Assembly (NCBI GenBank): GCA_965208615.1
Contig: CBDBPB010000007.1
Span: forward strand, 384,001 to 448,000
Direction: 5' to 3'
Length of the DNA stretch: 64,000 nucleotides
Origin: Spirochaetota bacterium
GTDB lineage: Bacteria > Spirochaetota > UBA6919 > CBDBPB01
Every line of letters begins with the position of its first letter. Positions within the stretch are counted from its first letter, which is position 1. The notes below the pieces were generated by a model. The model worked only from the letters and a program-made list of their open reading frames with translations. It made no database searches and was not told the origin of the DNA. Below, in pieces: positions 36,901 to 55,182 of this stretch. Made by a program: the position numbers and the translations under genes.

Positions 36901-38429
36901 TGCTGGTGAAAAGTTTTTTAGTTTCTAGATGTAACGACTTTTTCTTTAGTATTGAGAGTTTATTTCTGGCTTTTTTTCTCCATGGATATAGTCTAATTTT
37001 TTTAAGTATTTTTATAGCTTTATCGAATTGATTTTTATAATTTATATATACTTCAGCTGTATGATAGAGTCCTTTATGTGCGTTGCTATTATTTGGATAT
37101 TTTTTAAATAGTTTATTCCAGATGTTAATGGCATCATCCATATTTTTTTTAAGTAGTTTTATTTGTCCTAGTTTAAATATTATTTGCGGATTTCTATATT
37201 CTATTGGATACTCTCTTAGGAAGGATATATATAGTTTTTCTGCTTTATCATATTTTTTTAGATTTAGGTAATAATTAGCTTTATTAATTTTTATATTTAT
37301 GATTTGTTTTTGTATTTTTTTGCCATAGTGGATGGTTTGGATAATCACTTAAGAATTTATTAAGGTATGTAAGGCTTTTATCGAACTGATTTTCTTTTAG
37401 ATATATTTGTCCTATTATCTTAAAGGCTATGGGAGCTTTATTATGTTTGGGATAGGTATTTATAAAATAGTTTAGTTCTTTTAGACATTGTTTGGTTAAT
37501 TTTTTAAATTGTTTATAGCTTAAGCCGATTTCATAAGCACTTATTGGAGCCAATTTATGTTTGGGATATTTATTAATTAGCATTCGTAGATATTTAACTC
37601 CTAGTTCGAGGTTATTTTCATTTTTGGGATTGGGTATGTTATAGGACTTAGCTATACTATAAAGGATTTTAGGGGATAAGGTATTATTGTTTGAGTTATT
37701 TTCTTTTTTTAATACTTTAAGGTAATGTGTTCTACTTTTGTATGGGTATCCCATTATTCCTTCTATTTTTCCTAGATAGAAGTTAGCATTTTTTATTAGT
37801 TTAGACTTAGGGAATTCTTTAATAAATTCTGTTAATAGTGATTTTGCTTTGTAATAATTTTTTAGGTGATAATAGCATAAGGCTATTTTATACTGGATTT
37901 CTTTTATATTATTTTTATTAGCACCTATTTTCATTCCTCGTTTATAGAATTGGATGGCTTTTTTGTAGTTATTTTTTCTTTTATTTTTTTGGAAGGATAT
38001 ATTTTTTGCAAGGTCCAAGTATATTTGACTTAATTTATATCTTCTTTTGGGGTTTAGGATATATTTTAGACCATTTTGCAATATGGGATATGCTTTATCA
38101 TATTTTTTTTGTTTTATAAGGATATTAGCTTTTCTAAACTTAGCTTTTTGTATCCACTTTGAATCTTTAAAGTTATTAACAAGGTATTCATAAGTAGTTA
38201 TAGCTTTATTGTATTGTTTATTATTTTCAAAGCTTTTAGCTAACAGATATGTGATTTCATCTTTTTGTTTAAAGGATTTGAAGTTTTTTTGTATTAGGTT
38301 TATGGCTTTTTTATATTTTTTATTTTCTATATTATTAAGGGTTTTAGAAAGATAAGTATTACTTTTAGCAAAGACTATTGAGCTTATTACAAGGACTAGT
38401 ATTAGTAATAGTAATTTTTTTATTTTCAT
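30938..38429 (-). CDS. Giant TPR + alpha-2-macroglobulin family protein, split by a +1 frameshift at T7 37315-37321 (ORFs 37284..38429 and 30938..37348)
   Basis: Signal peptide + TPRs; MG2 motif YSDKPIYKPGD, RKLFPDIAFF, GGWSW, DNIPAG; removing one A gives a continuous 2496-aa frame (..LWQKIQKQ..). Confidence 0.85.
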
Positions 38430-40376: not shown

Positions 40377-40506
40377 ATTATCGGCAAAAACTGTGATAGT
40401 GAGTTTATTGTATTAGTCTAATAATTAACAGAGTTATTTATTAGACTAGTTTAAAATAAGATAATATATTTAAATATAATATTCAAAATGATTTTATTAT
40501 TTATTG

Positions 40507-40881
40507 TGTTAACGAACGTTTTAGCAAATATAACAAAAAACGTTTTAGCAGACATTTTGTTAGTGAAGGTTTTAGTATGTTATTGTAAGGGGGAGCTATT
40601 AGTTTACTTTTTATACAGGCATATTTTTTTTGAAGTTTTACATATAAAGTCAATATATAATATTTAAATAATCTGCTCTAAGGCTTTATGGAACGGCAAA
40701 TCCGTTATCATTTAATAAAGGTCTATAATCCTTAGTCTCAGCAAGGGATTCTTAATAGCTCTCGTAGTGATGACTACTTGCATAAAAAGTGATATTTTGT
40801 GTTCATTGCTAAGGCATTTAAACAGCACTGTTATTAAACGTTCTAATAAATATAACAATAAACGTTCTAAGGGAATTTTGT
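40507..40881 (+). repeat. Prophage left end: two ~54-bp imperfect direct repeats containing putative transposase-binding sites
   Basis: 40507-40560 and 40829-40881 both start TGTTA and hold two AACGTTYTAR sites 24 bp apart; a third variant site at 40566. Confidence 0.7.
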
Positions 40882-41065: not shown

Positions 41066-41851
41066 TTAAATAGCCTTAATATGACTTAGCTTACTTCTAA
41101 GCCTAATAATTGCTTTTGCATGTATCTGAGAAACTCTTGATTGAGATATGTTTAATATCTCTTTGATTTTTTTTAATTTTAAATCTTCATAATAATATAG
41201 AATAAGCACTTTTTTTTCTTTTTCAGGCAATTCTTCAATTATTTTTGCAATAACTTTTTTAACCTCTTCTTTGCCTACCATTATATCTGGGTTAAAAGAG
41301 TTAGGGCTTTCTATTGTTTCAATAATAGAGACTTTACCACTATCATAACCTAAATACCATGCATCATTAACAGATATTAATGATGTTCTGCATATTTTTA
41401 ATAGTGTTTGCTGAAAGTCGTCTACGGGGATTCCTAATTCACCAGCAATTTCTTCATCTGTGGGAGCTCTGCACAATCTGTTTTCTAAAGTATTAACAGC
41501 AGATTCAATTTCTTTAGCTTTCTGTCTTATTGATCTCGGTACCCAGTCAATAGAACGTAGCTCATCATATATTGCTCCCCTTATTCGTATAAACGCATAA
41601 CATTTAAATTTAATATCTCGAGATGGATCAAATTTTTCAATAGCATCAAGTAAACCAAAAACACCATACCCAACTAAATCGTCAAAATCAATATCTTGAG
41701 GCAGCAAGATTCTATTTGCAACTTTATTTGCAACATATTTTACTAAAGGAAGATATTGTATAATAAAGTTTTCTCTTATTGTTGGGTCTTGTGTTTTTTT
41801 ATACGTTTTGAACATATTTTTTTCTTTTTGATTAAGCATTTTTGTACACAC
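41066..41851 (-). CDS. fliA: Prophage-encoded FliA/WhiG (sigma28) family RNA polymerase sigma factor
   Basis: YLPLVKYVA, DDLVGYG..GLLDAIEKFD, IRIRGAIYDELR..DWVPRS, L.YYE.L, SRVSQIH; overlaps gemA stop; ATG at 41839 is an alternative start. Confidence 0.92.
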   Translation of the reverse strand: MCTKMLNQKEKNMFKTYKKTQDPTIRENFIIQYLPLVKYVANKVANRILLPQDIDFDDLVGYGVFGLLDAIEKFDPSRDIKFKCYAFIRIRGAIYDELRSIDWVPRSIRQKAKEIESAVNTLENRLCRAPTDEEIAGELGIPVDDFQQTLLKICRTSLISVNDAWYLGYDSGKVSIIETIESPNSFNPDIMVGKEEVKKVIAKIIEELPEKEKKVLILYYYEDLKLKKIKEILNISQSRVSQIHAKAIIRLRSKLSHIKAI

Positions 41852-42251
41852 CTTTTAGAGCCTCAATCAATATGGATGCTTGTTCCTTAGATAATCTATC
41901 ATAGGGCTTTTTAACAATTTTATTAGAGAAGTTACTAAGTTCTTCTTCATCCCATTTTAGTTGATAGCATAGTTTTAATATTTTTCTTTTTTGGCCTGGA
42001 CTCATAAGGGAAATTATATTCCCTTTTGAGTTTGGGGATGGCTTAGTATTTCTATATCTACCCTTTGAGGCGTTATATTTTGATATTAATGTCTCTATAA
42101 TCTTGTAAGCCTCCTGCCTTGTCAATTGTCTTATTGACTGCTTTCCACAAAGACCATAGATTATCTCGTATAAAGCCTCTTTGGGTAGCCTAACTTCATT
42201 TGTGCAAGCCCATATTTTAGCTATTTGTCTATTGCTAATACTATTTGTCAT
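41832..42251 (-). CDS. Mu gp16/GemA-like protein (DUF1018)
   Basis: QIAKI..., GKQS...LT..EA...IE.L, Q.RKI, L...QAS.LIEALK. Confidence 0.8.
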   Translation of the reverse strand: MTNSISNRQIAKIWACTNEVRLPKEALYEIIYGLCGKQSIRQLTRQEAYKIIETLISKYNASKGRYRNTKPSPNSKGNIISLMSPGQKRKILKLCYQLKWDEEELSNFSNKIVKKPYDRLSKEQASILIEALKGVYKNA

Positions 42252-42624
42252 TTGCTTTTACATATAGCCTTTCGCTTGTGGATGTGTTAGTTATGTCAAC
42301 CAGAGCCCTTACATTACCTTTTAGAGCTTCCTTACCTTTTTTGGTTAGGGTATATCTCTCACTTATCCAGCTGGAGGCGTTCTCTTTTGTTATAGTCCCC
42401 TTTTCAATAGCGTCTTTTAACGTTATTGGATCAATGAGTGTGTATTTAGTCTCAGCAAGGCTTACCCTGCCTTTGTTGGTATTTATGCTCTCTCCTCTAA
42501 CCATAAAGCTAATAACCTTTTTGCTTAGGCTGTTATAGCTATTTTCCATGGCCTTAAGAGCTTTGTAGCACTTGATAAGCTTTTTAACTTCTTTAATTTT
42601 GTCTTTTTCCATGTTAAAAATCAT
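42241..42624 (-). CDS. Phage hypothetical early protein
   Basis: AAGGAG SD; coupled to gemA-like gene. Confidence 0.65.
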   Translation of the reverse strand: MIFNMEKDKIKEVKKLIKCYKALKAMENSYNSLSKKVISFMVRGESINTNKGRVSLAETKYTLIDPITLKDAIEKGTITKENASSWISERYTLTKKGKEALKGNVRALVDITNTSTSERLYVKANDK

Positions 42625-42640
42625 TTTACTCTCCTTGTTT

Positions 42641-43489
42641 TTAGATGTGTTTAAAATGTTTATTAGTCAAAATATTAGACCCAGCATTTTTGGCTATAAT
42701 TAAACCTTCTTTTAAAAGTTTGTTTATCTCCAAAAAGGATGATTGGCGTTTGGCTATCTCTTCAAAGGCGGAATTGTCAATACAACTGATATTAAGTTTA
42801 TTAGTCTTTGCAATATGTTTTATATACTCTCTGCACTCATCAGGGGTTGCAATGCTGGCTATTGATAGACATTCTATTCTATTGTTGATTTCTTTGTTAT
42901 TAGGCTCATTCAACAATGTGGATAGCTTGTTCTGTCCTATCAGCACTATACTAATAAGCCTGCTAAAGCCATAAGTACTCTCCCAAATGCTTTTTAAGGA
43001 AAACAGATTATCCTTGTTCATTCTGTGAGCCTCATCCACAATAAGGACGGCCTTCTTATTCTCTTTAACCAAAGAAGTTAGTATATGCTTTACCTGTCTT
43101 ATAAAGGCCTCATTTGATCTTGTTGTCTTTGTGCCAGGCTGAATGTCAAATAAAAGAGCTTCGTATATTTGTCTTAGTCCTACTTTGATAAACTCATGAT
43201 TTTCTATATTGCATATTATTGTTGAACTGTCATTTTTATAAAAGTCAGCCAAATATCTAACGAGGTATGTCTTGCCAGAGCCTGTCTCACCGGTTATAGC
43301 AATGAACTTCTTATTCTTAATTGCGTTGAATATAAAGGCGAATGCAAGTCTAAAGCCTTCAGATAAAAATATATCCTTTTCATTTTCTATTTTGTTGATA
43401 ATACTAATGTTATCAATAAGTTTGTTAATGCTATCTTCAGTTCCTTTTTTTAGTTTTGGAACAGCTCTTTCTTTCATTTTGGTAATCAT
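42641..43489 (-). CDS. MuB-like / ExeA-type AAA transposition ATPase
   Basis: Walker A GETGSGKT, Walker B IVDEAH, LIGQ; follows transposase. Confidence 0.88.
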   Translation of the reverse strand: MITKMKERAVPKLKKGTEDSINKLIDNISIINKIENEKDIFLSEGFRLAFAFIFNAIKNKKFIAITGETGSGKTYLVRYLADFYKNDSSTIICNIENHEFIKVGLRQIYEALLFDIQPGTKTTRSNEAFIRQVKHILTSLVKENKKAVLIVDEAHRMNKDNLFSLKSIWESTYGFSRLISIVLIGQNKLSTLLNEPNNKEINNRIECLSIASIATPDECREYIKHIAKTNKLNISCIDNSAFEEIAKRQSSFLEINKLLKEGLIIAKNAGSNILTNKHFKHI

Positions 43490-43507
43490 AGTAGCGCTCC
43501 TTATTTG

Positions 43508-45106
43508 TTAGGCTGAGTCAGCCTCTTTAACTTTTCTAATTAGAGAGTTAAGTTCACTTTCATATATTTTATTTCTATCACCAAAGAGGTTCTCAAGAGT
43601 CAGCTCAACAGCAGTGGTTACTTTTATATCATTGCTTGCTAAGTATATACACGCTGACTCAAAGTCATGGGCAGTCTGATTGATATTTCTTTTAATGTTA
43701 AAGTTTACTACATTTGGTTTTTCGTATTGCTTTTTGCTTACTTTTTCCAGCCCTGATACCATCTCGATTCTGGTTGTATAACTACCTGTGGTAACGTTTT
43801 TATAGCTTTCAAGTTCTTTCTTAAGCTTATCCTTTTTGCTTTCCGGCATTTGTTTAAAAGCTCCAAAAGGTATTATATCCTCTCCATAAATATCAATATT
43901 AAAAGCCTTAATTTCTTTTCCTTCCGCAATAATGTTAATCTTGTCTCTATCCCTAATATCCTCTTCCACTTTTACTTTTTTGCCTATGCTGTTTGACAAA
44001 ATATTCCTATAAGTTTTGGCTTGATATGTTTTACCATTCCACTTAATGGTAAAGTTGGGCATCAAAAGCCTTGAGTCCCATTTAGGACAAAGGCTCATAA
44101 AGCTTTTGTAATCAGGAGGCATCACAACTGTTAGATGCTGTAGATGGCTGTAAAACAATGTATTTGGGGCAATATCTGTTACTGAGTGAGTCCTGCTGTT
44201 ATATTCATTAGCTATTGCATTTACCATTTGGTTATACTGTTTTAGGGTAGTGATTTTCTCAATGCGGGTTATGCTCGATCTTTTCTCCAAAAACTGTATA
44301 GACCTTTCAATCATGCCCTTTGCTTGGGGGTTGCCAGGTATATGGGTTAGAAGCTCAACATTCAACTCTTTTAAGGTTTTATTGACAACTCCGCTTCTGT
44401 GGAACATAGAGGCATTATCAGTATAAATATACTTTGGCAGTCCTGTTTTGCTAGTTACCTCATAAAACTGCTGTAACCAAGTTTGGGTGGACTCATGAGT
44501 ATCCACTTTAAACCAGACCTTCCTACTGAACATATCCTGGAATGCCATGAACACAAGTTTAGTCTTTTTATTAGACCTATTCTTATTCTCAGACATTGGA
44601 CTAATATATTTAACAACAGAATCGTTATTTTTTTCATGGCTGACATACCACTGAGTAGCCCTTGTGGAATCCCACTGTAGAACTTCTAAAGGGTAACTTG
44701 TAGTTAGTCTGAGGCTTGCTTTTTTAAGTTTAGACTTTCTGCCAAGCTCGTCATCCCTTAGCCATCTTCTTAGTGTGGATGGATGAATTGGGGACTTTAT
44801 TAGCTGTCCATTTTCAATTTCTCCTTTTATGGTGCCGTCTATTATAAGGTCTTTGATTGCCTCTTCTGCTGGACGCTTATAGGTATTGACTAAAAGGACA
44901 AGCTTGTGGTATACGCTTTCTGGCAGTATTTTTTCTCCCTTATCTGATCGCTTATTCCTACGTCTGTATCCATATTTTCTAAGTTGTCTGTTTACGGATT
45001 GAGGGGTAACGCCATATTTTTTAGCAAGTTCTGGTATAAGGCTTAGGCCTTGCGTGGTTAGTATGTCTATTATGTCTTCCCATTCAGAATTAGTCAACCG
45101 TGGCAT
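43508..45106 (-). CDS. Mu-like DDE transposase (rve core)
   Basis: N-terminal HTH, LQWDS, QDMFSR, YTDNAS, NPQAKGMIERS, YN...HS. Confidence 0.92.
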   Translation of the reverse strand: MPRLTNSEWEDIIDILTTQGLSLIPELAKKYGVTPQSVNRQLRKYGYRRRNKRSDKGEKILPESVYHKLVLLVNTYKRPAEEAIKDLIIDGTIKGEIENGQLIKSPIHPSTLRRWLRDDELGRKSKLKKASLRLTTSYPLEVLQWDSTRATQWYVSHEKNNDSVVKYISPMSENKNRSNKKTKLVFMAFQDMFSRKVWFKVDTHESTQTWLQQFYEVTSKTGLPKYIYTDNASMFHRSGVVNKTLKELNVELLTHIPGNPQAKGMIERSIQFLEKRSSITRIEKITTLKQYNQMVNAIANEYNSRTHSVTDIAPNTLFYSHLQHLTVVMPPDYKSFMSLCPKWDSRLLMPNFTIKWNGKTYQAKTYRNILSNSIGKKVKVEEDIRDRDKINIIAEGKEIKAFNIDIYGEDIIPFGAFKQMPESKKDKLKKELESYKNVTTGSYTTRIEMVSGLEKVSKKQYEKPNVVNFNIKRNINQTAHDFESACIYLASNDIKVTTAVELTLENLFGDRNKIYESELNSLIRKVKEADSA

Positions 45107-45107
45107 G

Positions 45108-45869
45108 TTATCTCCTAATAAGCCTGTCGTCCCATCTGACTCCCCATGCAGTCTGGACGCTTTTTATAGTTGTTACAAGACTTGACAGCAAATCAGTAGC
45201 CTGTCTTTGTTCTATATTTATTATGCTTGCTTTTTGTATGCTGAAAACAGCTTCGTTTATGAGGTCTTGGGCTTTTTTAAGATTCTCTATACAAAGCTTG
45301 TTAGGGTTTTTCAGGTCTTCTATTTGACCTTCAAGCTTTTCGATTTCTTTATCTTTTTCACTAAGCTGGACTTTGCCGAGTTCAATTTGTTTTTCTTTTT
45401 CTATTCTTTTTCGTTTTTCAATCTCTTCGCCCGCCTTAGCTTTTTCAGCCATATTCAGCACATCTCTTTTTGAGAGTTCGTTTACATCTTTTCCTTCCAG
45501 TTTTCCAGTTTTCATTGCTTCATCAAAAAGATCATCAGGAAGTTTGGCAACGGCTTTGAAAGCAAAAGCCTTCATATCAATTATCTTGTTTTTATAAGGG
45601 TAGTATCTTTTTGCTATTTGCATATAACTCTGAGCCGTACGTTGAGAAAAGCCGCAAGACTCTTTTACCCATAAACCAAATTCTCCATGATCAAGTCGTT
45701 CTTTAGCTAGAATTAAATGCCTTCCTAATTCGATTATGTTTAGGAGAGTTTGTGTGTGGAGCTCTTTTATGATACCAGCTGTTCTGTCAGGATCAAAAAT
45801 AAGTCCGTCAGTTAACTCATCAGTTGTTAATTCATTAGTTATAATATCAGTTGTAGCTAATTCGTTCAT
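45108..45869 (-). CDS. DUF3102-domain protein
   Basis: IELGRHL..AKE.LDHGEFG.W....GFS.RTAQ.YM.IA; usual position before Mu transposase. Confidence 0.85.
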   Translation of the reverse strand: MNELATTDIITNELTTDELTDGLIFDPDRTAGIIKELHTQTLLNIIELGRHLILAKERLDHGEFGLWVKESCGFSQRTAQSYMQIAKRYYPYKNKIIDMKAFAFKAVAKLPDDLFDEAMKTGKLEGKDVNELSKRDVLNMAEKAKAGEEIEKRKRIEKEKQIELGKVQLSEKDKEIEKLEGQIEDLKNPNKLCIENLKKAQDLINEAVFSIQKASIINIEQRQATDLLSSLVTTIKSVQTAWGVRWDDRLIRR

Positions 45870-46881
45870 AACTTCCTCCTTGATGGTTGATTAGACTTGT
45901 CAGTTTGCTTTGTACCCAAAGTGGGACGTCATTTGACCTCTCTATTTTTTTTAGATACCCAGTAGTAATTTTTAACTTATCAGACAGCTCTTTTCTATTT
46001 ATGTTTAGCTTGCTTAGGCAGTCTGATATATAGTCAACTGTTTGATTACTGCTTTGTTCTAGCGGTTTGGATGTTTGTTTAGGCTCGCTAGAAAAAACTG
46101 CTTGTCCCCCTTTCCTGTTTACATTATGGAGGTTATTGGCTTTATTTTTATCGAAGGGGGTTATTTTTGTTACAGGAAGAGAGACAAGCAAATAACAAAA
46201 CGATAATGGAATTATACTTAGTAAAATGGATATAAAAGCTTTATTAAACATGCTTACAACAGTTGCTGGAATACCAGTTCGCTGGTCTAAGGAGGCCAAT
46301 ATGGTTTCTTTTTTGGTTTTTAGTGCTATAGGTTTTAGATTGGATAGTTTAGCCTGTTCCTTTGTCCAAGTTTGATTTAAGTTCTTAATATCGTTATTCA
46401 GTCTATGGATCATCCATCTTGAATCAGTACTTTGTATTTTATTTATAGTTTGATATTTAGCTTTTATTTGTTGTTCTATACTGCCCATTCTTTTTGATAT
46501 TAACTCTTTATTTTTGTATGAGTTTTGATATTTAGCGTTATTGTTTATGGTGATGGTTTGGATTTCTTTGTTTTTGTTAAGGGATAGGCTTGTCATAACA
46601 GCGAAGTTAGCAAAGCTGGCAAAGGCAATTAGCACGGCTGATATTGTACCAAACACGGTTTTTGCTAATCTTTTGTTTGACTTGAACAAAAACACATGGC
46701 TTATTATTTCTAATATTAGGACGGCCGCTAAAGTGGATATGCCTAAGGATACGGAGTTCATTTCTTGGATAAATAGTTCTTTTTGGATGAGAAATATTAA
46801 AATTATTACAGCTATTAAAATTGTTATTAGTAAATATCTCCATAATGTTTTCATTTTTTCTCCCTGTTTTGTTTTAGCCAT
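45847..46881 (-). CDS. Membrane protein with coiled coil and C-terminal XRE-like HTH
   Basis: Three N-terminal TM helices, coiled coil, fourth TM, LNINRKELSDKLKITTGYLKKIE. Confidence 0.65.
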   Translation of the reverse strand: MAKTKQGEKMKTLWRYLLITILIAVIILIFLIQKELFIQEMNSVSLGISTLAAVLILEIISHVFLFKSNKRLAKTVFGTISAVLIAFASFANFAVMTSLSLNKNKEIQTITINNNAKYQNSYKNKELISKRMGSIEQQIKAKYQTINKIQSTDSRWMIHRLNNDIKNLNQTWTKEQAKLSNLKPIALKTKKETILASLDQRTGIPATVVSMFNKAFISILLSIIPLSFCYLLVSLPVTKITPFDKNKANNLHNVNRKGGQAVFSSEPKQTSKPLEQSSNQTVDYISDCLSKLNINRKELSDKLKITTGYLKKIERSNDVPLWVQSKLTSLINHQGGSYERISYN

Positions 46882-47039
46882 TTATCCTTTAGGACAACAG
46901 CTTTTAAAGTTTTATAAAGCTTGTTTTTTTCATCATCATCCATGCGATGGTATTTATTTATCACTCCAATTATATAATCTCGTTCATGTTTTGTTAGCTT
47001 AGGCAGTTCTGATAACGGTATAGACTCAAAATGCTTCAT
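46851..47039 (-). CDS. Phage hypothetical protein
   Basis: 62 aa; TAATG coupling to upstream gene. Confidence 0.6.
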   Translation of the reverse strand: MKHFESIPLSELPKLTKHERDYIIGVINKYHRMDDDEKNKLYKTLKAVVLKDKWLKQNREKK

Positions 47040-47527
47040 TACGCTAACCTCTTGAACTTATTTGGTCTTATATGCAGTTCTTCAGCCCATTTATGCAATT
47101 CTTTGTTCGAAAAGACTGCTTCTACTTGAGCTTCATTGACTATACCAAATATGTTTTCCCAGTTAAGGCCTGCTTTTCTTAATCTTAGCTTTATCAAGGC
47201 TATATATTCTTTTTTTGATAAGTATGAATAGTTATTCTGAACAACTTTGTGAAGGCAGGTTTTCAGAAATTCAGACTCGCTAAGTCGTTTGAGATCGTAT
47301 TTTTTATGACAAAACGCAGATCGGATTTCATTTTCGAGTAGATTTAGCTTTTTCAAAAAAGCAACTACGTCATTGTGTCTTTTGTTTTTGGTATTAAGAT
47401 ACTTATAGGCTGTGGCAGAACTGACGCCAAAGTGCAACATGATGTTTTTGATTATGTCCTTTTTTTTAAGAATTTTTCTTCTTTCGTTATATGAGTGTAT
47501 CTCTATGCTGTTCATTTCACACCTCAA
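47039..47527 (-). CDS. Phage protein with N-terminal HTH-like motif
   Basis: IMLHFGVSSATAYKYL; likely start ATG 47515 after GAGGTG. Confidence 0.6.
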   Translation of the reverse strand: MRCEMNSIEIHSYNERRKILKKKDIIKNIMLHFGVSSATAYKYLNTKNKRHNDVVAFLKKLNLLENEIRSAFCHKKYDLKRLSESEFLKTCLHKVVQNNYSYLSKKEYIALIKLRLRKAGLNWENIFGIVNEAQVEAVFSNKELHKWAEELHIRPNKFKRLA

Positions 47528-47553
47528 ACGCCAGCACTTGCTGGCGGGAATAA

Positions 47554-47734
47554 CTACATTTTTCTTATCAGATTGATTGTATCTAGAACGTCTTTTTCAG
47601 AGTAATGACCCATTATTTCTCTCTCAGCTTTCTTTAAAAGAGACTCAAATCTGCTCTGTAAGAACAGGCATCGTTTTTTTTAAACAAAGAGCACTTTGAA
47701 GCATGTTTTGGACTTCGCTTGACAATACTTCCAT
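47554..47734 (-). CDS. Small phage protein (59 aa) with +1 frameshift in T8 at 47674-47681
   Basis: GGGGG SD; MEVLSSEV..CLKK joins RCLFLQSRFES..RKM if one A is removed. Confidence 0.5.
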
Positions 47735-47777
47735 GAACTTCCCCCTTCTTTTTTTTATAACTCAGGCATGCCTATCG

Positions 47778-47913
47778 CTAAGCGGGATCTGCAAACAGGG
47801 CTGGGTGCTGGCTTATAAGTTCTACAGCCCTATCTAAAACTGACAAAGCTAAGCACAACTTTAAAAGCTAATTGCTCTATTTCTTGTTTTCCAGCTAAGT
47901 ATTTGTTATTCAC
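47778..47913 (-). pseudogene. Frameshifted paralog of the 49-aa genes at 48391 and 48563
   Basis: GTG start after GGGAG; KQEIEQLAFKVVLSF, then in another frame SVLDRAVELISQHPALF, aligning with KKEIENKAFII..ILKKAMEMIRENPMLF. Confidence 0.5.
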
Positions 47914-47923
47914 TGCCTGCTCC

Positions 47924-48151
47924 CTATGGCTCTACTAATACTTTAGATTTTCTTCTTTTCAATCTTGGGTGATAGTATTTTTTCTGGAACTCAATTAGGC
48001 TGTCTTTTTCTATTAACCAAACAGTCCCGCCTGCTAAACGGGAACCAATTCGCTCTTCTCTGCAAAACTTTGTAATAGATGACTTTGGGATGCCTGTCCA
48101 TGCGGTAGCTTCTGACACGACAAAAACATCATTTAAATTAATTTTTTCCAT
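47924..48151 (-). CDS. Excisionase-like HTH protein
   Basis: VSEATAWTGIPKSSITKFCR..RI......WLI...L. Confidence 0.7.
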   Translation of the reverse strand: MEKINLNDVFVVSEATAWTGIPKSSITKFCREERIGSRLAGGTVWLIEKDSLIEFQKKYYHPRLKRRKSKVLVEP

Positions 48152-48244
48152 AAACTTCCCCCTTTTTTTGTACTCCCCTCCAGCCTATCGCTTGTCATTG
48201 TGTTGTGTTATAGTTACCTTTGTGTAAAATATCTGGAGGTAACT

Positions 48245-48394
48245 ATGACAGAAGACAACGACCTAAAAAGCATTCTCATCGAGATATCTCAACAGCTAAA
48301 TGACATTAAAACTCTTCTATCAGAGCATCTCCCAGCCCTCTCAGAAAACTCTAAGAAGCTTGTCAAGAGATCAGCTATGAAGCCAAGAATTTAG
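48245..48394 (+). CDS. Counter-oriented small protein (49 aa), moron-like
   Basis: GGAGGT SD; extended -10 TGtTATAGT at ~48206-48214; coiled-coil-like sequence. Confidence 0.6.
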   Translation: MTEDNDLKSILIEISQQLNDIKTLLSEHLPALSENSKKLVKRSAMKPRI

Positions 48395-48540
48395 TTATCA
48401 AATAGTATTGAATTAGCTTCTATCAACTCTTTGACTCGCCCTAAAGTAGACAGGGCGAGCTTTTTTGGCATATCAGACATTTGGAGCATTATGGTATAAG
48501 CCCCTTCTTCACGACGTTTTGTATCTTCTTTGTTTTCCAT
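48391..48540 (-). CDS. Small phage protein (49 aa)
   Basis: AGGGAG SD; MENKEDTKRREEGAYTIM..ELIEANSILFDN. Confidence 0.6.
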   Translation of the reverse strand: MENKEDTKRREEGAYTIMLQMSDMPKKLALSTLGRVKELIEANSILFDN

Positions 48541-48562
48541 GTTTGTCTCCCTTTTTATTTTT

Positions 48563-48712
48563 TTATTCCGAAAAACAAAAGAGCATAGGATTTTCTCTTA
48601 TCATTTCCATTGCTTTCTTTAGTATAGCAACAGAATCGCAAACTGATTCTGTTGAAAAGCCAATAGCGATTATAAATGCTTTGTTCTCAATCTCTTTTTT
48701 AGACAGCTTCAT
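48563..48712 (-). CDS. Small phage protein (49 aa), paralog of 48391..48540
   Basis: ATGA overlap with upstream gene; MKLSKKEIENKAFII..EMIRENPMLFCFSE. Confidence 0.6.
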   Translation of the reverse strand: MKLSKKEIENKAFIIAIGFSTESVCDSVAILKKAMEMIRENPMLFCFSE

Positions 48713-48945
48713 ACTACCTTCCTCGCTGGCCTGAAGGGATACTCGTTGCCTCCACTCCGAAACGTCACAAACAATCTGTTAAGATTGTGATAATGCCAGT
48801 ACTCATAAGGCATTATCCCCACATTGTTTCTTAGATGCCCGTTATCCAAAACGGATTTATAGGTTATTCCATGATAAACTATTTCTAACTCATCAGACAA
48901 AGTACTGCAATGATAATCTTTTGCAGACGGTTTAATAGCATACAT
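48709..48945 (-). CDS. Phage hypothetical protein
   Basis: AAGGAG SD, 78 aa. Confidence 0.6.
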   Translation of the reverse strand: MYAIKPSAKDYHCSTLSDELEIVYHGITYKSVLDNGHLRNNVGIMPYEYWHYHNLNRLFVTFRSGGNEYPFRPARKVV

Positions 48946-48956
48946 TTTATTCTCCT

Positions 48957-49904
48957 TTAGTTTGTAGTTGCAAATCTAACTGGAAAATTATCTTTTATTT
49001 TGTGTTTAATGTTGTGTTTAACGCTATTAGCTTTAAAGTCGCTATTATCATCAGCCCTCTCTATTTGGCAAAAAGACATATTGTCTAATTCACGCATAAG
49101 TTCTAAGTTCTCTCTTTTTTTAAGCTCTTGTATGCACTTATAGATTATCAATTTTCTTTGATAAAACTTCTTATCTGCTTTGTCCGTGCTAAAAAGAGCA
49201 GTGAAGTGATGATAACAGTCAACTGCAAGCTCTTTAGAGTTTTCTATTTTGTAATTTTGAAACCAAGCAAGGATATGGATAGCTGGAAAACATAGGCTCT
49301 TTTTTAGCTTGTTGCTAAAGTTAGGCACTAAAACATTAGTCACAGGAATATTAGCTTTTTTGATAGCCCTGTATGCCCTTTGTGAGTCAAGATTAAGGAC
49401 CTGACAAACATTATTAACAACTAATAAAATCTCTTTTGAGATCTTATTGCGAAGTGCTATAAAGACTTTGTCTGACTCATAAGGAATGGCTTTAAGGTCG
49501 TAAGACATACTATAATGAAATGTTCTTGGCTTTTTTGGCTTAACTTTGCCCAAAAAGTGCTCGGCTAATACTTTGGCTGCTTCGTCTTGATACAATTCAA
49601 GCTTTTTTTGGAGTTCTGGCTTAACTTTATTTATGTTGATTGTTGTTAGCCACAGTGGAATTAAATCGTGGCGAATGCAAAACATGTCTTGTGCTGTGAC
49701 TGCTCCTCTTGTCGGTATTGGGATAATCACAACACCTTTAGATAAAGTTCTGTTGTTTTTGATTTTTGTATATTGTGCAGGATAGTCAATCCCTAAAGCC
49801 TCACAAATGAGCTTGAGAGGAGTGCAAATGTCATTAGTTTGCCTGTCCAGCACTGCTGTTATTTTATCACCGTAAAAATCGATTGTAGATATTTCATTTC
49901 TCAT
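48957..49904 (-). CDS. Antirepressor (P22 AR N-terminal domain) copy 3, with a second degenerate AR-like domain
   Basis: IDFYGD..., ICEALGID..Q..KI, MFCI...PLWL..I...KVKPE, YQDEAAKVL. Confidence 0.85.
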   Translation of the reverse strand: MRNEISTIDFYGDKITAVLDRQTNDICTPLKLICEALGIDYPAQYTKIKNNRTLSKGVVIIPIPTRGAVTAQDMFCIRHDLIPLWLTTININKVKPELQKKLELYQDEAAKVLAEHFLGKVKPKKPRTFHYSMSYDLKAIPYESDKVFIALRNKISKEILLVVNNVCQVLNLDSQRAYRAIKKANIPVTNVLVPNFSNKLKKSLCFPAIHILAWFQNYKIENSKELAVDCYHHFTALFSTDKADKKFYQRKLIIYKCIQELKKRENLELMRELDNMSFCQIERADDNSDFKANSVKHNIKHKIKDNFPVRFATTN

Positions 49905-49908
49905 TTTC

Positions 49909-50899
49909 ATTCTCCCATCCGAAAAACTTGTCAAGGCGTTTATAGTTTTAGCTCTTGCACAAAGCCTTTCTTGCGTGCTGTTGCCAGATTTGGGCTGTTC
50001 TTTGCCCTATCCCAAGCTTTTTGTAAAACTCTAATTTTTCTCCATGTTCAAAGTTTTTATTGCTTAGATACATGCCTATCGCTAAGCGTATTGCATTTTG
50101 TGTTGCTCTGCTCATGTTGCTTAAAACTGTCTCTATGTCTTTATCATTTGCATTGCTATTAGCAAGACGAATGAAAGCCTCAATAGTATTGTCTTTGGCT
50201 CGACCCAAAAAGTGCTCGGCTAATACTTTGGCTGCTTCGTCTTGATACAGTTCTAACCTAACTTGAAGGCCAGACTTCACCCTGTCTATATTAATTGTTG
50301 CAAGCCATAATGGCAAAGAGTCTTGGCGGATATAAAACATGTCCTGCTCTTTGACTGCTCCTTTTGTCGGTGTTCGTATAACACGAACACCTTTTGATAA
50401 TATTCTATGTCTCTGGATTTTCTCATATTGTCCACTAAAACTAAGACCTAAACGATCACAGATAGGCTTAACAGGAGTATAAATATCATTAGTTCTCTTA
50501 TCTAAAATCCCTGTTACCCTATCTCCATAAAAGTTAATAGTTGATATTTCATAATTATTATTCATTGTTATTCTCCCATCCGAAAAACTTGTCAAGGCGT
50601 TTATAGTTTTAGCTCTTGCACAAAGTCTTTCTTGCGTGCTGTTGCCAGATTTGGGCTGTTCTTTGCCCTATCCCAAGCTTTTTGTAAAACTCTAATTTTT
50701 CTCCATGTTCAAAGTTTTTATTGCTTAGATACATGCCTATCGCTAAGCGTATTGCATTTTGTGTTGCTCTGCTCATGTTGCTTAAAACTGTCTCTATGTC
50801 TTTATCATTTGCATTGCTATTAGCAAGACGAATGAAAGCCTCAATAGTATTGTCTTTGGCTCGACCCAAAAAGTACTCGGCTAATACTTTGGCTGCTTC
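49909..50899. repeat. 330-bp near-identical direct repeat (49909-50238 and 50570-50899)
   Basis: Offset 661 bp; two mismatches seen. Confidence 0.9.
49948..50565 (-). CDS. Antirepressor (P22 AR N-terminal domain) copy 2
   Basis: YTPVKPICDRLGL...Q..KI, LPLWLATI..DRVK, YQDEAAKVL; C-terminus shared with copy 1. Confidence 0.85.
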   Translation of the reverse strand: MNNNYEISTINFYGDRVTGILDKRTNDIYTPVKPICDRLGLSFSGQYEKIQRHRILSKGVRVIRTPTKGAVKEQDMFYIRQDSLPLWLATINIDRVKSGLQVRLELYQDEAAKVLAEHFLGRAKDNTIEAFIRLANSNANDKDIETVLSNMSRATQNAIRLAIGMYLSNKNFEHGEKLEFYKKLGIGQRTAQIWQQHARKALCKS

Positions 50900-51220
50900 T
50901 TTTTGGTAAAGGTAGAGCCTGTCTCTTAGTTCTGGCTTGACTTTGTTGATGTTGATTGTTGTTAGCCATAGTGGAACTAAATCGTGGCGAATACAAAACA
51001 TGTTTTGTTTTTTGACAGCACCTCTTGTCGGTGAGACCATAATGGTCACACCGTCGCTTAAAACAGGATGGTTTTGTATTTTTCTAATTTGCTTGTTTGA
51101 AGCAATTCCAAAAATCTCACAAATAGGTCTGACAGGAGTGTAAATGTCATTAGTTTGCCTGTCCAGCACTGCTGTTATTTTATCACCGTAAAAATCGATT
51201 GTAGATATTTCATTTCTCAT
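50609..51220 (-). CDS. Antirepressor (P22 AR N-terminal domain) copy 1
   Basis: YTPVRPICE, PLWLTTININKVKPE, YQKEAAKVL; GGGAG SD; overlaps the Ner/Cro gene end. Confidence 0.85.
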   Translation of the reverse strand: MRNEISTIDFYGDKITAVLDRQTNDIYTPVRPICEIFGIASNKQIRKIQNHPVLSDGVTIMVSPTRGAVKKQNMFCIRHDLVPLWLTTININKVKPELRDRLYLYQKEAAKVLAEYFLGRAKDNTIEAFIRLANSNANDKDIETVLSNMSRATQNAIRLAIGMYLSNKNFEHGEKLEFYKKLGIGQRTAQIWQQHARKTLCKS

Positions 51221-51398
51221 TTTCATTCTCCCATCCGAAAAACTTGTCAAGGCGTTTAGAAGTCATTTTGTCATGTATATAAAAATGCACTGCGTGATAA
51301 GTTATCCCTAATGTTTTAGCTGCTTCTTTCTGAGTCATCCCTTTATCAATTAACTTTTTTTTACAATGTTTGATTTTCTGAAGGTTTTCAGCAGACAT
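51210..51398 (-). CDS. Ner/Cro-like HTH early regulator
   Basis: GMTQKEAAKTLGITYHAVHFYI; divergent from repressor; AAGGAG SD. Confidence 0.85.
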   Translation of the reverse strand: MSAENLQKIKHCKKKLIDKGMTQKEAAKTLGITYHAVHFYIHDKMTSKRLDKFFGWENENEK

Positions 51399-51484
51399 TA
51401 ACAGCTCCTTTAATCAATTTTTTATTAATGTAATTTGAATTTCATTCGATTTTAAATTAACTTAATATTAATTAAGTTAATTAT

Positions 51485-51513
51485 ATTATACGGATAAATT
51501 ATCCGTAAGTCAA
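51485..51513 (-). promoter_or_regulatory. Early sigma70 promoter with palindromic operator in its spacer
   Basis: Minus strand TTGACT-N17-TATAAT; TACGGATAA-A-TTATCCGTA palindrome 51489-51507; second IR 51455-51482. Confidence 0.8.
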
Positions 51514-51554
51514 GTGTAATTTTGTTTTTTTATCCTTTTTTTTTGAGTATTTAT

Positions 51555-52001
51555 ATGTTTGGCGATAGAGTAAGGAAAGTACGAAACATATTGAAGCTGA
51601 ATCAGTCTCAGCTATCTAAAGCAATAGGGATAGATAGCAGTCGTTTAAGCCGCGTAGAAAATGATAAAGAAAAGTTGACAATAGAGCAATTGGATAAATT
51701 ATCAAGACTAAAGAATATTAATCTGCACTGGCTATTAACAGGAGAGGGTGAGATGTTTTTAGGCTCTAAGGATAAAAATAAAATGGAAGAGAGAGTCACA
51801 TATCACGAAATGAGCGATGCCGAGATCAGGCTGTTAAAAGAGATCATAATGCTCTCAGAAGAAGCTTGCATAGATTTAGAGATTAGGGTTGACCCAAAAA
51901 CAAAAGCAGAAAAGATAGTAAAGCTTTTTCTACACTATCATAAAGAAGAGATAGCAGTAGACAAACAAACTATTGGCACTATATTAAAACTTGTGTCGTA
52001 G
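51555..52001 (+). CDS. Prophage repressor (XRE HTH)
   Basis: GDRVRKVR..LKLNQSQLS..IGI....SRVE, NLHWLLTGEGEM. Confidence 0.9.
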   Translation: MFGDRVRKVRNILKLNQSQLSKAIGIDSSRLSRVENDKEKLTIEQLDKLSRLKNINLHWLLTGEGEMFLGSKDKNKMEERVTYHEMSDAEIRLLKEIIMLSEEACIDLEIRVDPKTKAEKIVKLFLHYHKEEIAVDKQTIGTILKLVS

Positions 52002-52174
52002 TAACCAAGAAATGCAAGCTTATGAGATAATATTACTTTATATTGATAATAAACATTAACAACGCTATCCTTAACCATTATGACTCTGTCTACTCCTTTT
52101 AGCTTCTCTTTTTTTCCGATTTTCTCTTCAAATTCTTTTCGCACTTTTTTTCTCTTACTGTTATTTTCGCCCAT
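51938..52174 (-). CDS. Phage hypothetical protein, convergently overlapping the repressor
   Basis: AAGGAG SD; 78 aa. Confidence 0.45.
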   Translation of the reverse strand: MGENNSKRKKVRKEFEEKIGKKEKLKGVDRVIMVKDSVVNVYYQYKVILSHKLAFLGYYDTSFNIVPIVCLSTAISSL

Positions 52175-52495
52175 CGGTTTTCTCCTTGTATAAATCAGTC
52201 TTTATAAACTATATTAAACAAAGGGTAATGTTAATATCTTAGACTTAAAGTGAGAAAAAATAAACTTATTTTGAATTTTGACAGGAAGTTAGTCGTATAG
52301 AACAGTAATAAAATTGCTTTTATGACAGCTATATTAATTCAAATGCGTACACCCCGCACGCATTTGACCCTGTGTTTATGATTTTTACTTTTAGGTAAAG
52401 TAGGGTTAAAAAATACATATAATAGGAAGAAAGTCAGTTTTAAATGCGAAATCGTTTCGCATTTGTCATTACGGTGATTTGAATATCGCTTTCTA

Positions 52496-52675
52496 TTATA
52501 GATTTGATTTTTTTAACAAATATTTTTCTATACTGTCTTTATAGAGAAATATTTTTTTCTTACCAGGTTTATATCCTTTAATTTTACCGTCTTCAAGCAG
52601 TTCATAAAGCATGTGTCTGCCTATCTTGTATATCTCAGAAGCTTCTTTAACAGTCATAACATTTTTACTTGTCAT
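52496..52675 (-). CDS. Excisionase-like HTH DNA-binding protein
   Basis: MTVKEASEIYKIGRHMLYELLEDGKIKG....I......IE.YL. Confidence 0.8.
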   Translation of the reverse strand: MTSKNVMTVKEASEIYKIGRHMLYELLEDGKIKGYKPGKKKIFLYKDSIEKYLLKKSNL

Positions 52676-52717
52676 ATATTCTACAATTACGTCAATTTCT
52701 ATTAAAAAAAACAACTA

Positions 52718-52760
52718 TTTTAGCTGTTTTAGAGGTTTTAGCTGTTTTAGGCAGTTTTAG
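52718..52760. repeat. Five TTTTAG direct repeats at 9-10 bp spacing upstream of the late operon
   Basis: Copies at 52718, 52727, 52736, 52745, 52755. Confidence 0.75.
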
Positions 52761-52797
52761 GTTTGCCTAAAGTCTTTTCTATTCATAACTTTTTTGT

Positions 52798-53316
52798 ATG
52801 GCGTACTCTGATTTAATTAAAGAGCAAGCGTTTAGTCTCTTTTGCATAGGCTATTCGTTTGCTAAAATAGCAAAGAAGCTTAAAATTGAAAATAAAAAAG
52901 AATGCAAAAACATAAACAGCAAGACAGTCAAGACGTGGGCAAAGAGGTTTGATTGGGAGAATGAAAGAGAAAAAGGTAAAAAAAGTGCTATAGAAAACAG
53001 AAAACAAAGCATAGTTAATTTAATAACACAAGTTGCAAAGCAAACGGAAAAGCAAATCATAAAATGTCTTGAAGAGATAGACAAAAAAGAGTTCAGCAGT
53101 AAGGAGGGCGGGATATATGCTACAATAGCCCTTCTGAATAAGCACTTAGAGCTTGCTGGCAAAAATGTAATAATAAACATAAACAACAAAGAGGATGTGG
53201 CCCTTTTGCTGACAGCTATGCAGAGCATACCCGAGCTAAACAATGCTATAGAAAAACATAAAAGCGTGATAGGAAAAAAATTAAAAGAGCTACAAGCTGA
53301 AAATGAAGAGGCATAA
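52798..53316 (+). CDS. DUF1804-like / small terminase-like HTH protein
   Basis: MAYS...KE.AF.L...G.S...IA..L..TVKTW....DW; first late gene. Confidence 0.65.
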   Translation: MAYSDLIKEQAFSLFCIGYSFAKIAKKLKIENKKECKNINSKTVKTWAKRFDWENEREKGKKSAIENRKQSIVNLITQVAKQTEKQIIKCLEEIDKKEFSSKEGGIYATIALLNKHLELAGKNVIININNKEDVALLLTAMQSIPELNNAIEKHKSVIGKKLKELQAENEEA

Positions 53317-53319
53317 ATA

Positions 53320-53607
53320 ATGACAGTCGCTGAAGAAAGGCTAAGAGAAGCTGAAACAGACATTAAGCTATTACAAATTGGTCAAACTGAAATCAAAAAA
53401 GATTTGCAATATGTTAAGCTGGCTGTAAACGAGCAAAAAGATACTGACAAGGAGATCCTTGACAAGCTCGATGAACATAGCATATCGCTTAACACCCTTA
53501 CCAATTCAAGAACATTAGGGAAACGCATTATGGAAATTGTATTAGGGGGTTTATTGACAGGTTGTTTAGCACTTATTGCATGGTTTGCAAGAGAGGCGCT
53601 TAAATGA
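53320..53607 (+). CDS. Coiled coil + C-terminal TM protein (lysis cassette, XhlA-like)
   Basis: Coiled coil followed by IVLGGLLTGCLALIAWF; precedes endolysin. Confidence 0.55.
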   Translation: MTVAEERLREAETDIKLLQIGQTEIKKDLQYVKLAVNEQKDTDKEILDKLDEHSISLNTLTNSRTLGKRIMEIVLGGLLTGCLALIAWFAREALK

Positions 53608-54080
53608 ATTGGACCAACTTTTCCATAAACGAAATTGTTAATCCTTTATTCGATGACTGCCCTTATAGCTGGATTGAACTATCCGGCGAAGTTAAAAGGA
53701 ACCTGATTCATACAATGGACTTGGTTCAAGAGTTGAGAAGTCATATGGGCTTAGGAATAAGGCTTAATAGCACATACAGACCTAAAAGCAAAGGGGCTCA
53801 CGGCTCTGGCAAAGCTGTTGACTGTCAATTTTATCTTGATGATACGTCGGCCTATCTTCGGGCTATGAACTGGCTTAAGCAGGGATGTTCTCAAACGGGT
53901 TTTAGAGTCATAATGGAGTGGAGCGGTAGGCCAGATGGTATTCCCTGGTTCCACGTAGACAGAAATTATAAAGATTATGGAGCTAAAGTTTTAGTAGTGG
54001 GCTATCCTACTGATGGAGTGCCCGGCAATAAAATGGAATATGCCTATTGGACAGGAGGTTTGCCGGGAGATTATGTATAA
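53604..54080 (+). CDS. Endolysin, peptidase M15 family
   Basis: NSTYRP, AHGSGKAVD, WFHVD zinc motifs. Confidence 0.85.
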   Translation: MNWTNFSINEIVNPLFDDCPYSWIELSGEVKRNLIHTMDLVQELRSHMGLGIRLNSTYRPKSKGAHGSGKAVDCQFYLDDTSAYLRAMNWLKQGCSQTGFRVIMEWSGRPDGIPWFHVDRNYKDYGAKVLVVGYPTDGVPGNKMEYAYWTGGLPGDYV

Positions 54081-54294
54081 AATAAGTAGGAAGTTTTGGC
54101 TTGCAGTAGCTTTAATAATTTCAGCTACCATACTGCTCATATATAATATAATAAACAGCGATAACTGGGTGCACGTTGTGGAGGTCATTGGGGCTAGTTA
54201 TATTGCGGGCAATGTGGCTCACAGTGCTGTTAGCAGTATGAGGTTTATGAGAGTTGAAAAAAGAAGAGTAGATATAGATGATGTTGAAAAGTAA
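54073..54294 (+). CDS. Holin-like protein
   Basis: SRKFWLAV, two TM helices, YIAGN; GGGAG SD. Confidence 0.7.
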   Translation: MYKISRKFWLAVALIISATILLIYNIINSDNWVHVVEVIGASYIAGNVAHSAVSSMRFMRVEKRRVDIDDVEK

Positions 54295-54341
54295 GGATAA
54301 TTTAATAAAAAATATAACTTTTAATTTAAGGAGTAAAAACT

Positions 54342-54449
54342 ATGACAAGCGTCAAGAGAATACTTGGTCAACTAGCTAAGCACTGGAAAATAATTGCCCT
54401 TACCGTAGGAGCTATTTGTTTAGCTGTACTATTGCTATACGCAGGATAA
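54342..54449 (+). CDS. Small membrane peptide (35 aa)
   Basis: AAGGAG SD; MTSVKRILGQLAKHWKIIALTVGAICLAVLLLYAG. Confidence 0.55.
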   Translation: MTSVKRILGQLAKHWKIIALTVGAICLAVLLLYAG

Positions 54450-54464
54450 CAATAGGATAGTACG

Positions 54465-54752
54465 ATGAAAAAGCTTATAATTATCGCAATAGCTATTATT
54501 ATAGCTATTGCTATTTTCTTTATAGTAAATAAGGATAACCATTTAAACGACTACTGGCACAATCTTATAGAGAGAAAAAAAGAAATTAAAAAAAAGAAAG
54601 AAGATAATAACTCAAAGATTGGAACAATTAAAATAAAACTAAATGAGCTTAAAAAAGAGGAAATAGAATTTGAGAAAAGTAAAAAAGTTCGCTCTAAAGT
54701 GGATATTAATAGTCTCCTTAGGCGTTATAAGCACTATAGCACAGGCAAGTGA
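54465..54752 (+). CDS. N-anchored coiled-coil protein (i-spanin-like)
   Basis: N-terminal TM, charged coiled coil; lysis cassette position. Confidence 0.55.
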   Translation: MKKLIIIAIAIIIAIAIFFIVNKDNHLNDYWHNLIERKKEIKKKKEDNNSKIGTIKIKLNELKKEEIEFEKSKKVRSKVDINSLLRRYKHYSTGK

Positions 54753-55182
54753 TGAAAATAGTCACAAAAAAGCCGCTATAGACTTGTATAAAGGTCTTGA
54801 GGATGCCAATAGAGTCATAATAGAACTAAGACAAGTTAATTATAGCCTTAGAAAAAGGTATAAGGCTTTGCTAAAGCAGAGTATAGAAATTACTAATGAG
54901 CTTATTGCCGTAAGAACTAAGCTAAACAGCAGTCTGGATAAGCAAACCTTTTGGATAAAGGAATACGAAAAGTTAAGAAATAAAAAGCTTGCTCACAAAT
55001 GGATAAGCATGTCCATTAATTTTGGAGTAAGCCATGACAGGCTGAAAACTGAGGCCTCTGTACGCCTTAGTCCTTTTAAGGCTTTGAAAAGCTTTAACTT
55101 CTTCCTGACAGGGGGATATGAGTATATATATAAACATAAAGGGGATTTTTATTGGTTAGTCGGCATTGGATATAGTTTATGA
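54670..55182 (+). CDS. Secreted coiled coil + C-terminal beta-strand protein (outer spanin-like)
   Basis: GAGG SD before TTG; signal peptide ending AQA; overlaps the upstream gene in +1 frame; ends WLVGIGYSL. Confidence 0.55.
   Translation: MRKVKKFALKWILIVSLGVISTIAQASDENSHKKAAIDLYKGLEDANRVIIELRQVNYSLRKRYKALLKQSIEITNELIAVRTKLNSSLDKQTFWIKEYEKLRNKKLAHKWISMSINFGVSHDRLKTEASVRLSPFKALKSFNFFLTGGYEYIYKHKGDFYWLVGIGYSL

Follow-up and report, generated by a model that had tools for sequence, protein, structure and literature searches.

Three tandem P22_AR_N genes with a mosaic of shared blocks behind cro in a putative transposable prophage of a Spirochaetota bacterium

How does a phage come to carry several related but different copies of one regulatory gene side by side? 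Phage proteins of the Bro-network and antirepressor-like kinds are well known to swap domains, but the way in which the swapping happens is not. The question is raised by a stretch of 64,000 nucleotides from a Spirochaetota bacterium (assembly GCA_965208615.1, contig CBDBPB010000007.1, positions 384,001 to 448,000), which is called the window here and in which all positions are counted from the first letter. In the window, three adjacent genes for P22_AR_N proteins (AR1, AR2 and AR3) lie on the minus strand downstream of a cro/ner gene, and the array fills part of a variable accessory slot, which follows cro/ner immediately within a transposable prophage's early operon. Two C-terminal modules and three N-terminal cores (plus one decayed core) are adjacent in it, so that the locus offers an intermediate at base resolution, whose crossover points are the conserved domain end and a leader that repeats part of the gene upstream. 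We consider it probable that this is a tandem paralog array which arose by duplicating a unit whose start lies in the cro tail, that homologous recombination has preserved its mosaic state, that it is expressed together with cro from an early promoter (Pe) and that it encodes regulators of different specificity.

The shared blocks of the three genes (Table 1) group them in incongruent ways: the 5' end joins AR1 with AR3, while the C-terminal module joins AR1 with AR2. The block common to AR1 and AR2 extends from the end of the N-terminal domain across a short C-terminal module (C_s) and the bases between the genes and takes in the following leader; its two mismatches in 330 bp are to be compared with a divergence of about 27% just upstream. 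The centres of the AR domains are 73–75% identical. For the three pairs of centres (codons 33–105), the synonymous divergence (dS) is 0.78–1.96 and the ratio of nonsynonymous to synonymous divergence (dN/dS) is 0.20–0.39, which means purifying selection. In the shared blocks, dS is 0, and codons 1–32 are free of synonymous differences between AR1 and AR3. A dS of 0 beside values of 0.8–2.0 requires recombination or gene conversion; the cores are therefore old functional lineages, and the shared blocks are tracts that were recombined or converted recently. A preliminary description, made from the letters alone, had proposed three P22_AR genes in a row with the same 34-bp leader, a 125-bp and a 330-bp block, differing centres and assembly by recombination; the genes, leaders and blocks were recovered to the base on the minus strand, and the divergence values agree with the rest.

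In a permutation test (137 variable sites of 394 three-way aligned columns; 10,000 permutations), the AR1/AR3 block forms a run of 25 concordant sites, which was matched by 0 of 10,000 permutations. The 330-bp AR1/AR2 block falls outside the three-way aligned part. The third block, described before as about 45 bp shared by AR2 and AR3, is present, but its run of 5 concordant sites is not significant alone (p = 0.10). It codes for YQDEAAKVLAEHFLG, the motif at which the domain family is most strongly conserved, and is weaker evidence than its appearance.

The leader is an exact repeat of 33 nt (34 with the preceding T), with one copy before each AR gene. The first copy is made of the last 11 codons of cro (KRLDKFFGWEN) with a ribosome-binding site (GGGAGAAT) at its end, and the stop codon of cro overlaps the start of AR1 (ATGAGAAATGA); the start codons of the three AR genes are also those picked by the gene caller. 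Because the repeat unit starts inside the last 11 codons of cro, every AR copy inherited the same ribosome-binding leader. The two inter-unit junctions, where the end of the C-module meets the leader, do not differ, and this suggests a single origin in one illegitimate join. All long repeats in the array are direct.

Table 1. Positions of the array, its shared blocks and neighbouring features in the window
Feature	Position	Strand	Description
AR1/AR3 5' block	51134-51258 vs 49818-49942	minus	125 bp, 1 mismatch, 117 bp exact
AR1/AR2 constant block	50570-50899 (copy A) vs 49909-50238 (copy B)	minus	330 bp, 2 mismatches
AR2/AR3 block	50204-50249 vs 49549-49594	minus	46 bp exact
AR1	50609-51220	minus	203 aa; P22_AR_N and short C-terminal module C_s (~85 aa, helix-turn-helix (HTH)-like)
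AR2	49948-50565	minus	205 aa; P22_AR_N with own 5' end and centre, plus C_s
AR3	48957-49904	minus	315 aa; P22_AR_N and long unrelated C-terminal part
Degenerate second P22_AR_N-like segment in AR3	49260-49508	minus	residues 133-215, in-frame M-S-Y start
Leader copy 1	51225-51258	minus	34 bp, within cro
Leader copy 2	50570-50603	minus	34 bp; non-coding spare of cro tail and Shine-Dalgarno site
Leader copy 3	49909-49942	minus	34 bp; non-coding spare copy
cro/ner-like HTH gene	51210-51398	minus	62 aa; weak HTH_3/HTH_26 matches, phrog_1468
Early promoter Pe	51485-51513	minus	TTGACT-17-TATAAT, 11/12 matches; upstream of cro; best promoter match of the region
CI/Xre-type repressor gene	51555-52001	plus, divergent from cro	148 aa, no S24 peptidase domain
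Rest of accessory slot	47041-48956	minus	orf78, two orf49, HTH_17 orf75, orf162

The array lies behind one strong promoter, as had been supposed, and a sequence scan gave no minus-strand terminator-like site inside the array. A promoter inside the leader was considered and rejected, as the TTGACA there has no acceptable -10 element and the scan gives only 9-of-12 sites. Two perfect palindromes are candidate operators: the 17-bp ACGGATAA-T-TTATCCGT at 51490–51506, between the -35 and -10 elements of Pe, and TTAACTTAAT-TAAT-ATTAAGTTAA at 51457–51480, in the intergenic region of repressor and cro.

All three proteins match the Pfam family P22_AR_N (PF10547; E 5.6e-29, 3.6e-25 and 1.8e-29 for AR1 to AR3; 89–103 bits against a cut-off of 30.7) as well as PHROG 524, 'anti-repressor Ant' (E 1e-27 to 1e-34). 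The C_s modules of AR1 and AR2 differ in one residue (T/A), and the C-terminal part of AR3 (190 aa) is unrelated to C_s, so the N-domain is joined to unrelated C-modules; many different C-termini behind the same N-domain are also found among the relatives in our alignment A1. In the structure model of AR1 (predicted local distance difference test, pLDDT, 83.7), the N-domain is predicted to be a winged-helix-like fold of the DNA-binding Bro-N/KilA-N type. In BFVD, 21 entries match this model at E ≤ 0.001, among them Ant-N and Bro-N proteins and proteins named 'repressor domain'; the fold matches to Bro-N and Ant-N proteins in BFVD and VIA-align include baculovirus Bro. In VIA-align, residues 1–92/120 match Dachshund (Z 8.8), Ski-like (7.9), CpGV Orf22-N (7.4), DdrC-N (7.2) and Mbp1 (5.9), and Foldseek against PDB gave weak E-values only (0.07–0.2). 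The C_s module looks HTH-like in the model: residues 147–203 weakly resemble the three-helix HTH of sigma region 4, Mu C, DeoR and ParB, with Z-scores of 4–5.7, a range that VIA-align calls common for small helical parts. For C_s, ESM Atlas returned no usable match and sequence searches of the PDB turned up nothing informative. In the AR1 fold, the variable centre falls on helices and a hairpin, and is expected from the model to set specificity, either for protein or for DNA.

AR3 contains a second, degenerate P22_AR_N-like segment, with which the array has three genes and four domain copies. Using a hidden Markov model built from the N-domains of 30 family members, this segment scores 22.4 bits (19.7–21 bits in other runs), compared with at most 8.3 bits in 2000 shuffles, and another family member (P0010) likewise has two domains. 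The AlphaFold model of AR3 is helical past residue 125 at a pLDDT of 40–77, so the second domain is unconfirmed by structure. No relatives of the C-terminal part of AR3 were found by word search, while ESM Atlas leads at 0.88–0.90 to ORF6N, Rha and Bro proteins. A complex prediction of AR1 with the window repressor scored 0.00 in both runs and weighs neither way.

From these parts a history may be proposed. One illegitimate join of the end of the C-module to the cro tail would have founded the array, which would then have grown via unequal crossing-over and been patched at conserved segments, whether through gene conversion or through exchange with allelic phages. Homologous recombination in the mosaic would take place at the leader, the domain end and the C-module. 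All three AR proteins would be made early after derepression or infection, and their differing centres, the helix-helix-wing part of the winged-helix-like fold, would give them different target specificities. The likeliest targets would be the non-cleavable CI-type repressors of this prophage and of two related heteroimmune elements, so that the AR proteins would lock in lytic growth or cross-induce related elements. Repeats of such size would give occasional deletions, of 661 bp at C_s with the leader, 655 bp at the domain-end block and 1316 bp at the 5' block, as a by-product and not as a dedicated mechanism. If the AR targets differ (repressor or DNA), the array is a compact example of a prophage widening its regulatory reach amid related elements; if the copies are redundant, it is an ordinary unstable duplication.

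Constant segments (the leader; C_s with leader, 330 bp at 99.4%) alternate with variable ones, inter-unit junctions are identical and each unit bears a spare copy of the last 11 codons of the upstream gene, all of which would also fit a dedicated accordion or cassette system, where constant segments act as recombination sites and variants are excised, lost, regained and reshuffled at useful frequency, possibly via circles of 655, 661 or 1316 bp. We hold such a system, the strong form of what the preliminary description had proposed, to be improbable, and no sign of active excision, circles or reshuffling was seen in the assembled contigs of the sequencing runs. Among the 29 open reading frames (ORFs) of 38586–61991, PHROG and Pfam searches gave only a Mu-type transposase and no integrase or site-specific recombinase; further leader copies are absent from the 2.46-Mb genome even at 6 mismatches, with none after AR3, and no leader-like remnant was found at the right edge of the accessory slot. 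RNA folds of the leader and the 5' block are no better than those of shuffles (leader RNA/DNA z 0.1–1.4). Integron-like cassettes are thus not matched, and neither is a shufflon or invertible switch, for which no recombinase was found and no flanking inverted repeats bounding the units (the five inverted pairs present, 20–28 nt at 71–90%, do not bound them). Direct repeats of 100–330 bp recombine through RecA in any case, and no system is needed. The Logan contigs of sequencing run X1, which drop rare variants, contain no deletion joint within the array; the only listed joint (49443–49475) comes from run X3. A loose end at 50732 in X1 was rejected as a variant junction, as it equals an isolated exact identity of 18 nt between non-coding positions 47767–47784 in the accessory slot and 50732–50749 and 50071–50088 in the C-modules of AR1 and AR2. 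The non-coding stretch lies 2.3 kb downstream; the identity has an E-value of 6e-5 in a 2-kb by 2.4-kb comparison and may be left over from another unit or have arisen by chance. A neutral tandem amplification of recent date, the copies being redundant and heading for loss, would explain why the 330-bp and 125-bp blocks are near-identical, but it is very unlikely, because recent duplication cannot yield saturated synonymous divergence beside a dS of 0; the centres are moreover under purifying selection and all three frames are intact. Least credible of all is an assembly artefact, in which alleles from several strains or prophage copies would have been joined end to end or merged into one, a danger that the preliminary description had itself pointed out. 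Independent Logan contigs do break exactly at the block borders, and short reads alone cannot order the units because the repeats exceed the k-mer length. However, k-mer depth in the X1 contigs speaks against an artefact: it is 2.9, 3.8 and 3.7 for the unique centres, 3.1 and 4.0 for the flanks, and 6.7 and 5.8 for the two shared blocks. By these depths the genome has a single copy of each variant and two of each shared block. This is the reverse of what a strain mixture would show, namely a fraction of the flank depth for each allele. The array contig is 480 kb long in an assembly of 9 contigs, the genome has no AR copies but these three, and a related element on contig 3 is without AR genes. 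In run X3, from another sample of the same study, short contigs at 49310–49597 match parts of AR3 exactly and then diverge or skip 31 nt (at the joint named above); related but different AR3 versions therefore exist in nature.

A different question is what the proteins bind. AR1–3 could be DNA-binding early regulators, or exclusion or defence factors of the Bro network, rather than antirepressors; the variable centre would then read different DNA sites, with C_s as a further HTH for binding DNA, in a manner likened to the satellite repressor CapR or to KilA-N defence proteins. This alternative deserves attention, although we think it clearly the less probable one. It is favoured by the match of the N-domain fold to the winged-helix-like Dachshund, Ski, Mbp1 and DdrC, by the resemblance of C_s to HTH domains, by names such as 'Repressor domain protein' among the BFVD matches, and by the Bro-network proteins, which the account in PMC10111431, so far as used here, gives as DNA-interactive, one being a repressor. 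On the other side, the Z-scores of C_s are in a range common for small helical parts, and the local repressors are without a self-cleavage domain, which leaves room for an antirepressor. P22 Ant, the founding member of the family, binds a repressor.

Several points weigh against a mosaic array of antirepressor-like regulators and should be kept in mind. The 'antirepressor' label derives from the family name, and the function is one that we infer; P22_AR_C is absent, and no Pfam family but P22_AR_N is found at E ≤ 0.01 in AR1–3. Judged from the models, direct DNA binding is as natural a reading of the N-domain fold and C_s. The AR genes sit under the promoter of their own repressor and are therefore unable to start induction from a fully repressed state. 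Matching three AR genes to three repressors is numerology. The tree of the centres has no resolution, with 58/54 support for a group of 8 that contains AR1–3 and P0009, an outside protein encoded on a 1366-bp contig and 44% identical, which alone among the outside family members combines the N-domain with the short C-module; no relative closer than 44% identity was found in the collections searched. In addition, X1 is probably the source sample of the genome, at a depth of about 3–4x, and its contigs break at the repeats, so that linkage across the repeats rests on the deposited assembly.

Compared with known systems, AR1–3 have the N-terminal domain family in common with P22 Ant and PHROG 524, but they depart from P22 Ant itself both in the C-terminal domain and in their regulatory setting. 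P22 Ant has P22_AR_C, whereas AR1 and AR2 have the short HTH-like module and AR3 a long orphan part with the degenerate second N-domain. P22 ant is present in one copy and lies in the separate immI region; the window has three copies, which follow cro in a transposable prophage's early operon. The antirepressor loci of P22, P1 and P4 have their own regulatory region with antisense or immunity RNA; in 46500–53000, no Rfam family of immunity RNA (C4, IsrK and others) was found at E ≤ 1, and the only Rfam matches there were two chance miRNA matches.

In protein architecture, there is a likeness to the Bro network of domain-swapping proteins, as sketched in PMC10111431. AR1–3 likewise have an N-terminal winged-helix-like domain (predicted to be of Bro-N/KilA-N/APSES-like fold) with interchangeable, unrelated C-modules, and the swap point is the conserved YQ.EAAKVLAE.FLG domain end. 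What differs here is that two C-modules and three N-cores are found in one locus, with recombination tracts at base level and a leader from the upstream gene. In arrangement, the array resembles the lpl cluster of S. aureus, where, in the part of the work drawn on here, homologous recombination at a conserved region reshuffles tandem paralogs (Tsuru and Kobayashi 2008, PMC2568036). The conserved unit of lpl, as described there, consists of the 3' part of an ORF, a spacer and the 5' part of the next ORF, like the 330-bp block; in both cases each paralog has a conserved segment with incongruent relationships on either side. The lpl genes of that account are host lipoprotein genes across many genomes, whereas the array is one phage locus in one genome, with rearrangements deduced from it.

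For the proposed targets, the Gifsy and Fels prophages of Salmonella are the relevant precedent. According to the portion of Lemire et al. (2011, PMC3121763) considered here, their antirepressors act on non-cognate, non-cleavable repressors, and one of them is controlled by the repressor of its own prophage while acting on that of another. Non-cleavable repressors and several related heteroimmune elements per cell are common to both cases, the antirepressor activity being a prediction for the array. In the same portion, the Gifsy and Fels antirepressors are small proteins, of which each prophage has one; unlike those of the array, their genes lie away from the immunity region and most are under LexA control. 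The slot itself has its parallel in Mu-like phages of Pseudomonas, in which accessory genes occupy fixed slots between core genes, mainly in the early arm, and repressor and Ner vary between phages (Cazares et al. 2014, PMC4378225, in the sections used). Those sections give zero to six mostly short unrelated ORFs per slot and describe no tandem paralog array, whereas the slot here holds the array and five small ORFs.

The host element appears from its gene content to be a Mu/B3-like transposable prophage: PHROG matches include Mu-type transposase A (43508–45106), transposase B (42641–43489) and a sigma factor, as well as lysis, terminase, portal, protease and major head genes on the plus strand. 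The limits of the slot were given by the element on contig 3 (L009, C3:9839-15823), which is 6 kb long and 98.5% identical to 41842–47041 of the window. It contains a repressor, cro, five early ORFs and transposases A and B only, is flanked by host genes (for a beta-lactamase-fold protein and an NHL-repeat protein) and has the look of either a truncated prophage or a mini-Mu-like derivative. Its cro directly abuts an ORF of 62 aa, which in the window lies at 46851–47039, and the homology begins exactly at the start codon of this ORF. Because the contig 3 element lacks the stretch 47041–51209 (about 4.2 kb), we regard that stretch, with the array and five small ORFs, as the accessory slot.

The repressor and cro of the contig 3 element are 48% (alignment A3; 45–47% by BLAST) and 47% identical to those of the window. 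A third repressor, 43% identical (A3; 41–42% by BLAST), belongs to a remnant at C7:165-171 kb (L010, C7:165224-171000), in which late-gene pieces are 63–92% identical in protein to 53320–55182 of the window and a DUF3102 protein is encoded; no transposase was found within the 18 kb examined. The HTH parts of the three repressors have diverged and the C-terminal halves are conserved. A Pfam search of the window repressor gave no peptidase domain, and the alignment shows none in the other two. With three heteroimmune repressors that lack such a domain in one genome, it is plausible on this sequence evidence that the AR proteins act as antirepressors on several targets. The preliminary description had included co-resident prophages among the possible targets; related repressors are indeed there, and an antirepressor action on them would be the predicted part of that claim. 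One may go further and imagine a matched toolkit for polylysogeny, in which each core neutralises one of the three heteroimmune non-cleavable repressors (own, contig 3 and C7:165-171 kb), the C-module with its cro-tail leader is a portable linker for capturing or losing cores among related phages, and the repertoire tracks the repressors in the host population; we offer this as a speculation that is unlikely to hold.

The array is the sole occurrence of the domain among the 401 phylum genomes searched: PF10547 was absent from the 400 other genomes sampled in the phylum, with a positive E. coli control. An exhaustive HMMER search gave 4084 family members. In a phage collection, 283 records matched in 287 places, and at most 4 records have more than one copy. 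A 4-row alignment (A2) was used to search for distant loci, of which 12 of 13 have one copy within ±7 kb, and one has two. The latter is an IMG/VR contig (L022:5895-8677) with two P22_AR_N genes on the same strand, 1.2 kb apart. Close relatives of the AR genes were missing in blastn against phages, in a comparison of the AR protein with 60 relatives (0/60), in a single-protein search of genome and viral contigs, and in metagenome contigs searched with A2; in a word-based protein search, the nearest outside match is 40–42% identical. A degenerate DNA pattern for AKVLAE[HY]FLG hit 4 loci in metagenome contigs, none of which encodes the domain, and these were discarded as chance matches.

Two further observations concern the early arm of the prophage. 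At its left edge, 40461–40829 contains a sequence of 200–390 bp with about 45 repeats over 7 of the 9 contigs at 74–96% identity, which by sequence could be either a dispersed small repeat, like a miniature inverted-repeat transposable element, or an end-associated element. The sigma-factor gene of the prophage (41071–41804) has 86.8% DNA identity to contig C4, positions 36420–37147.

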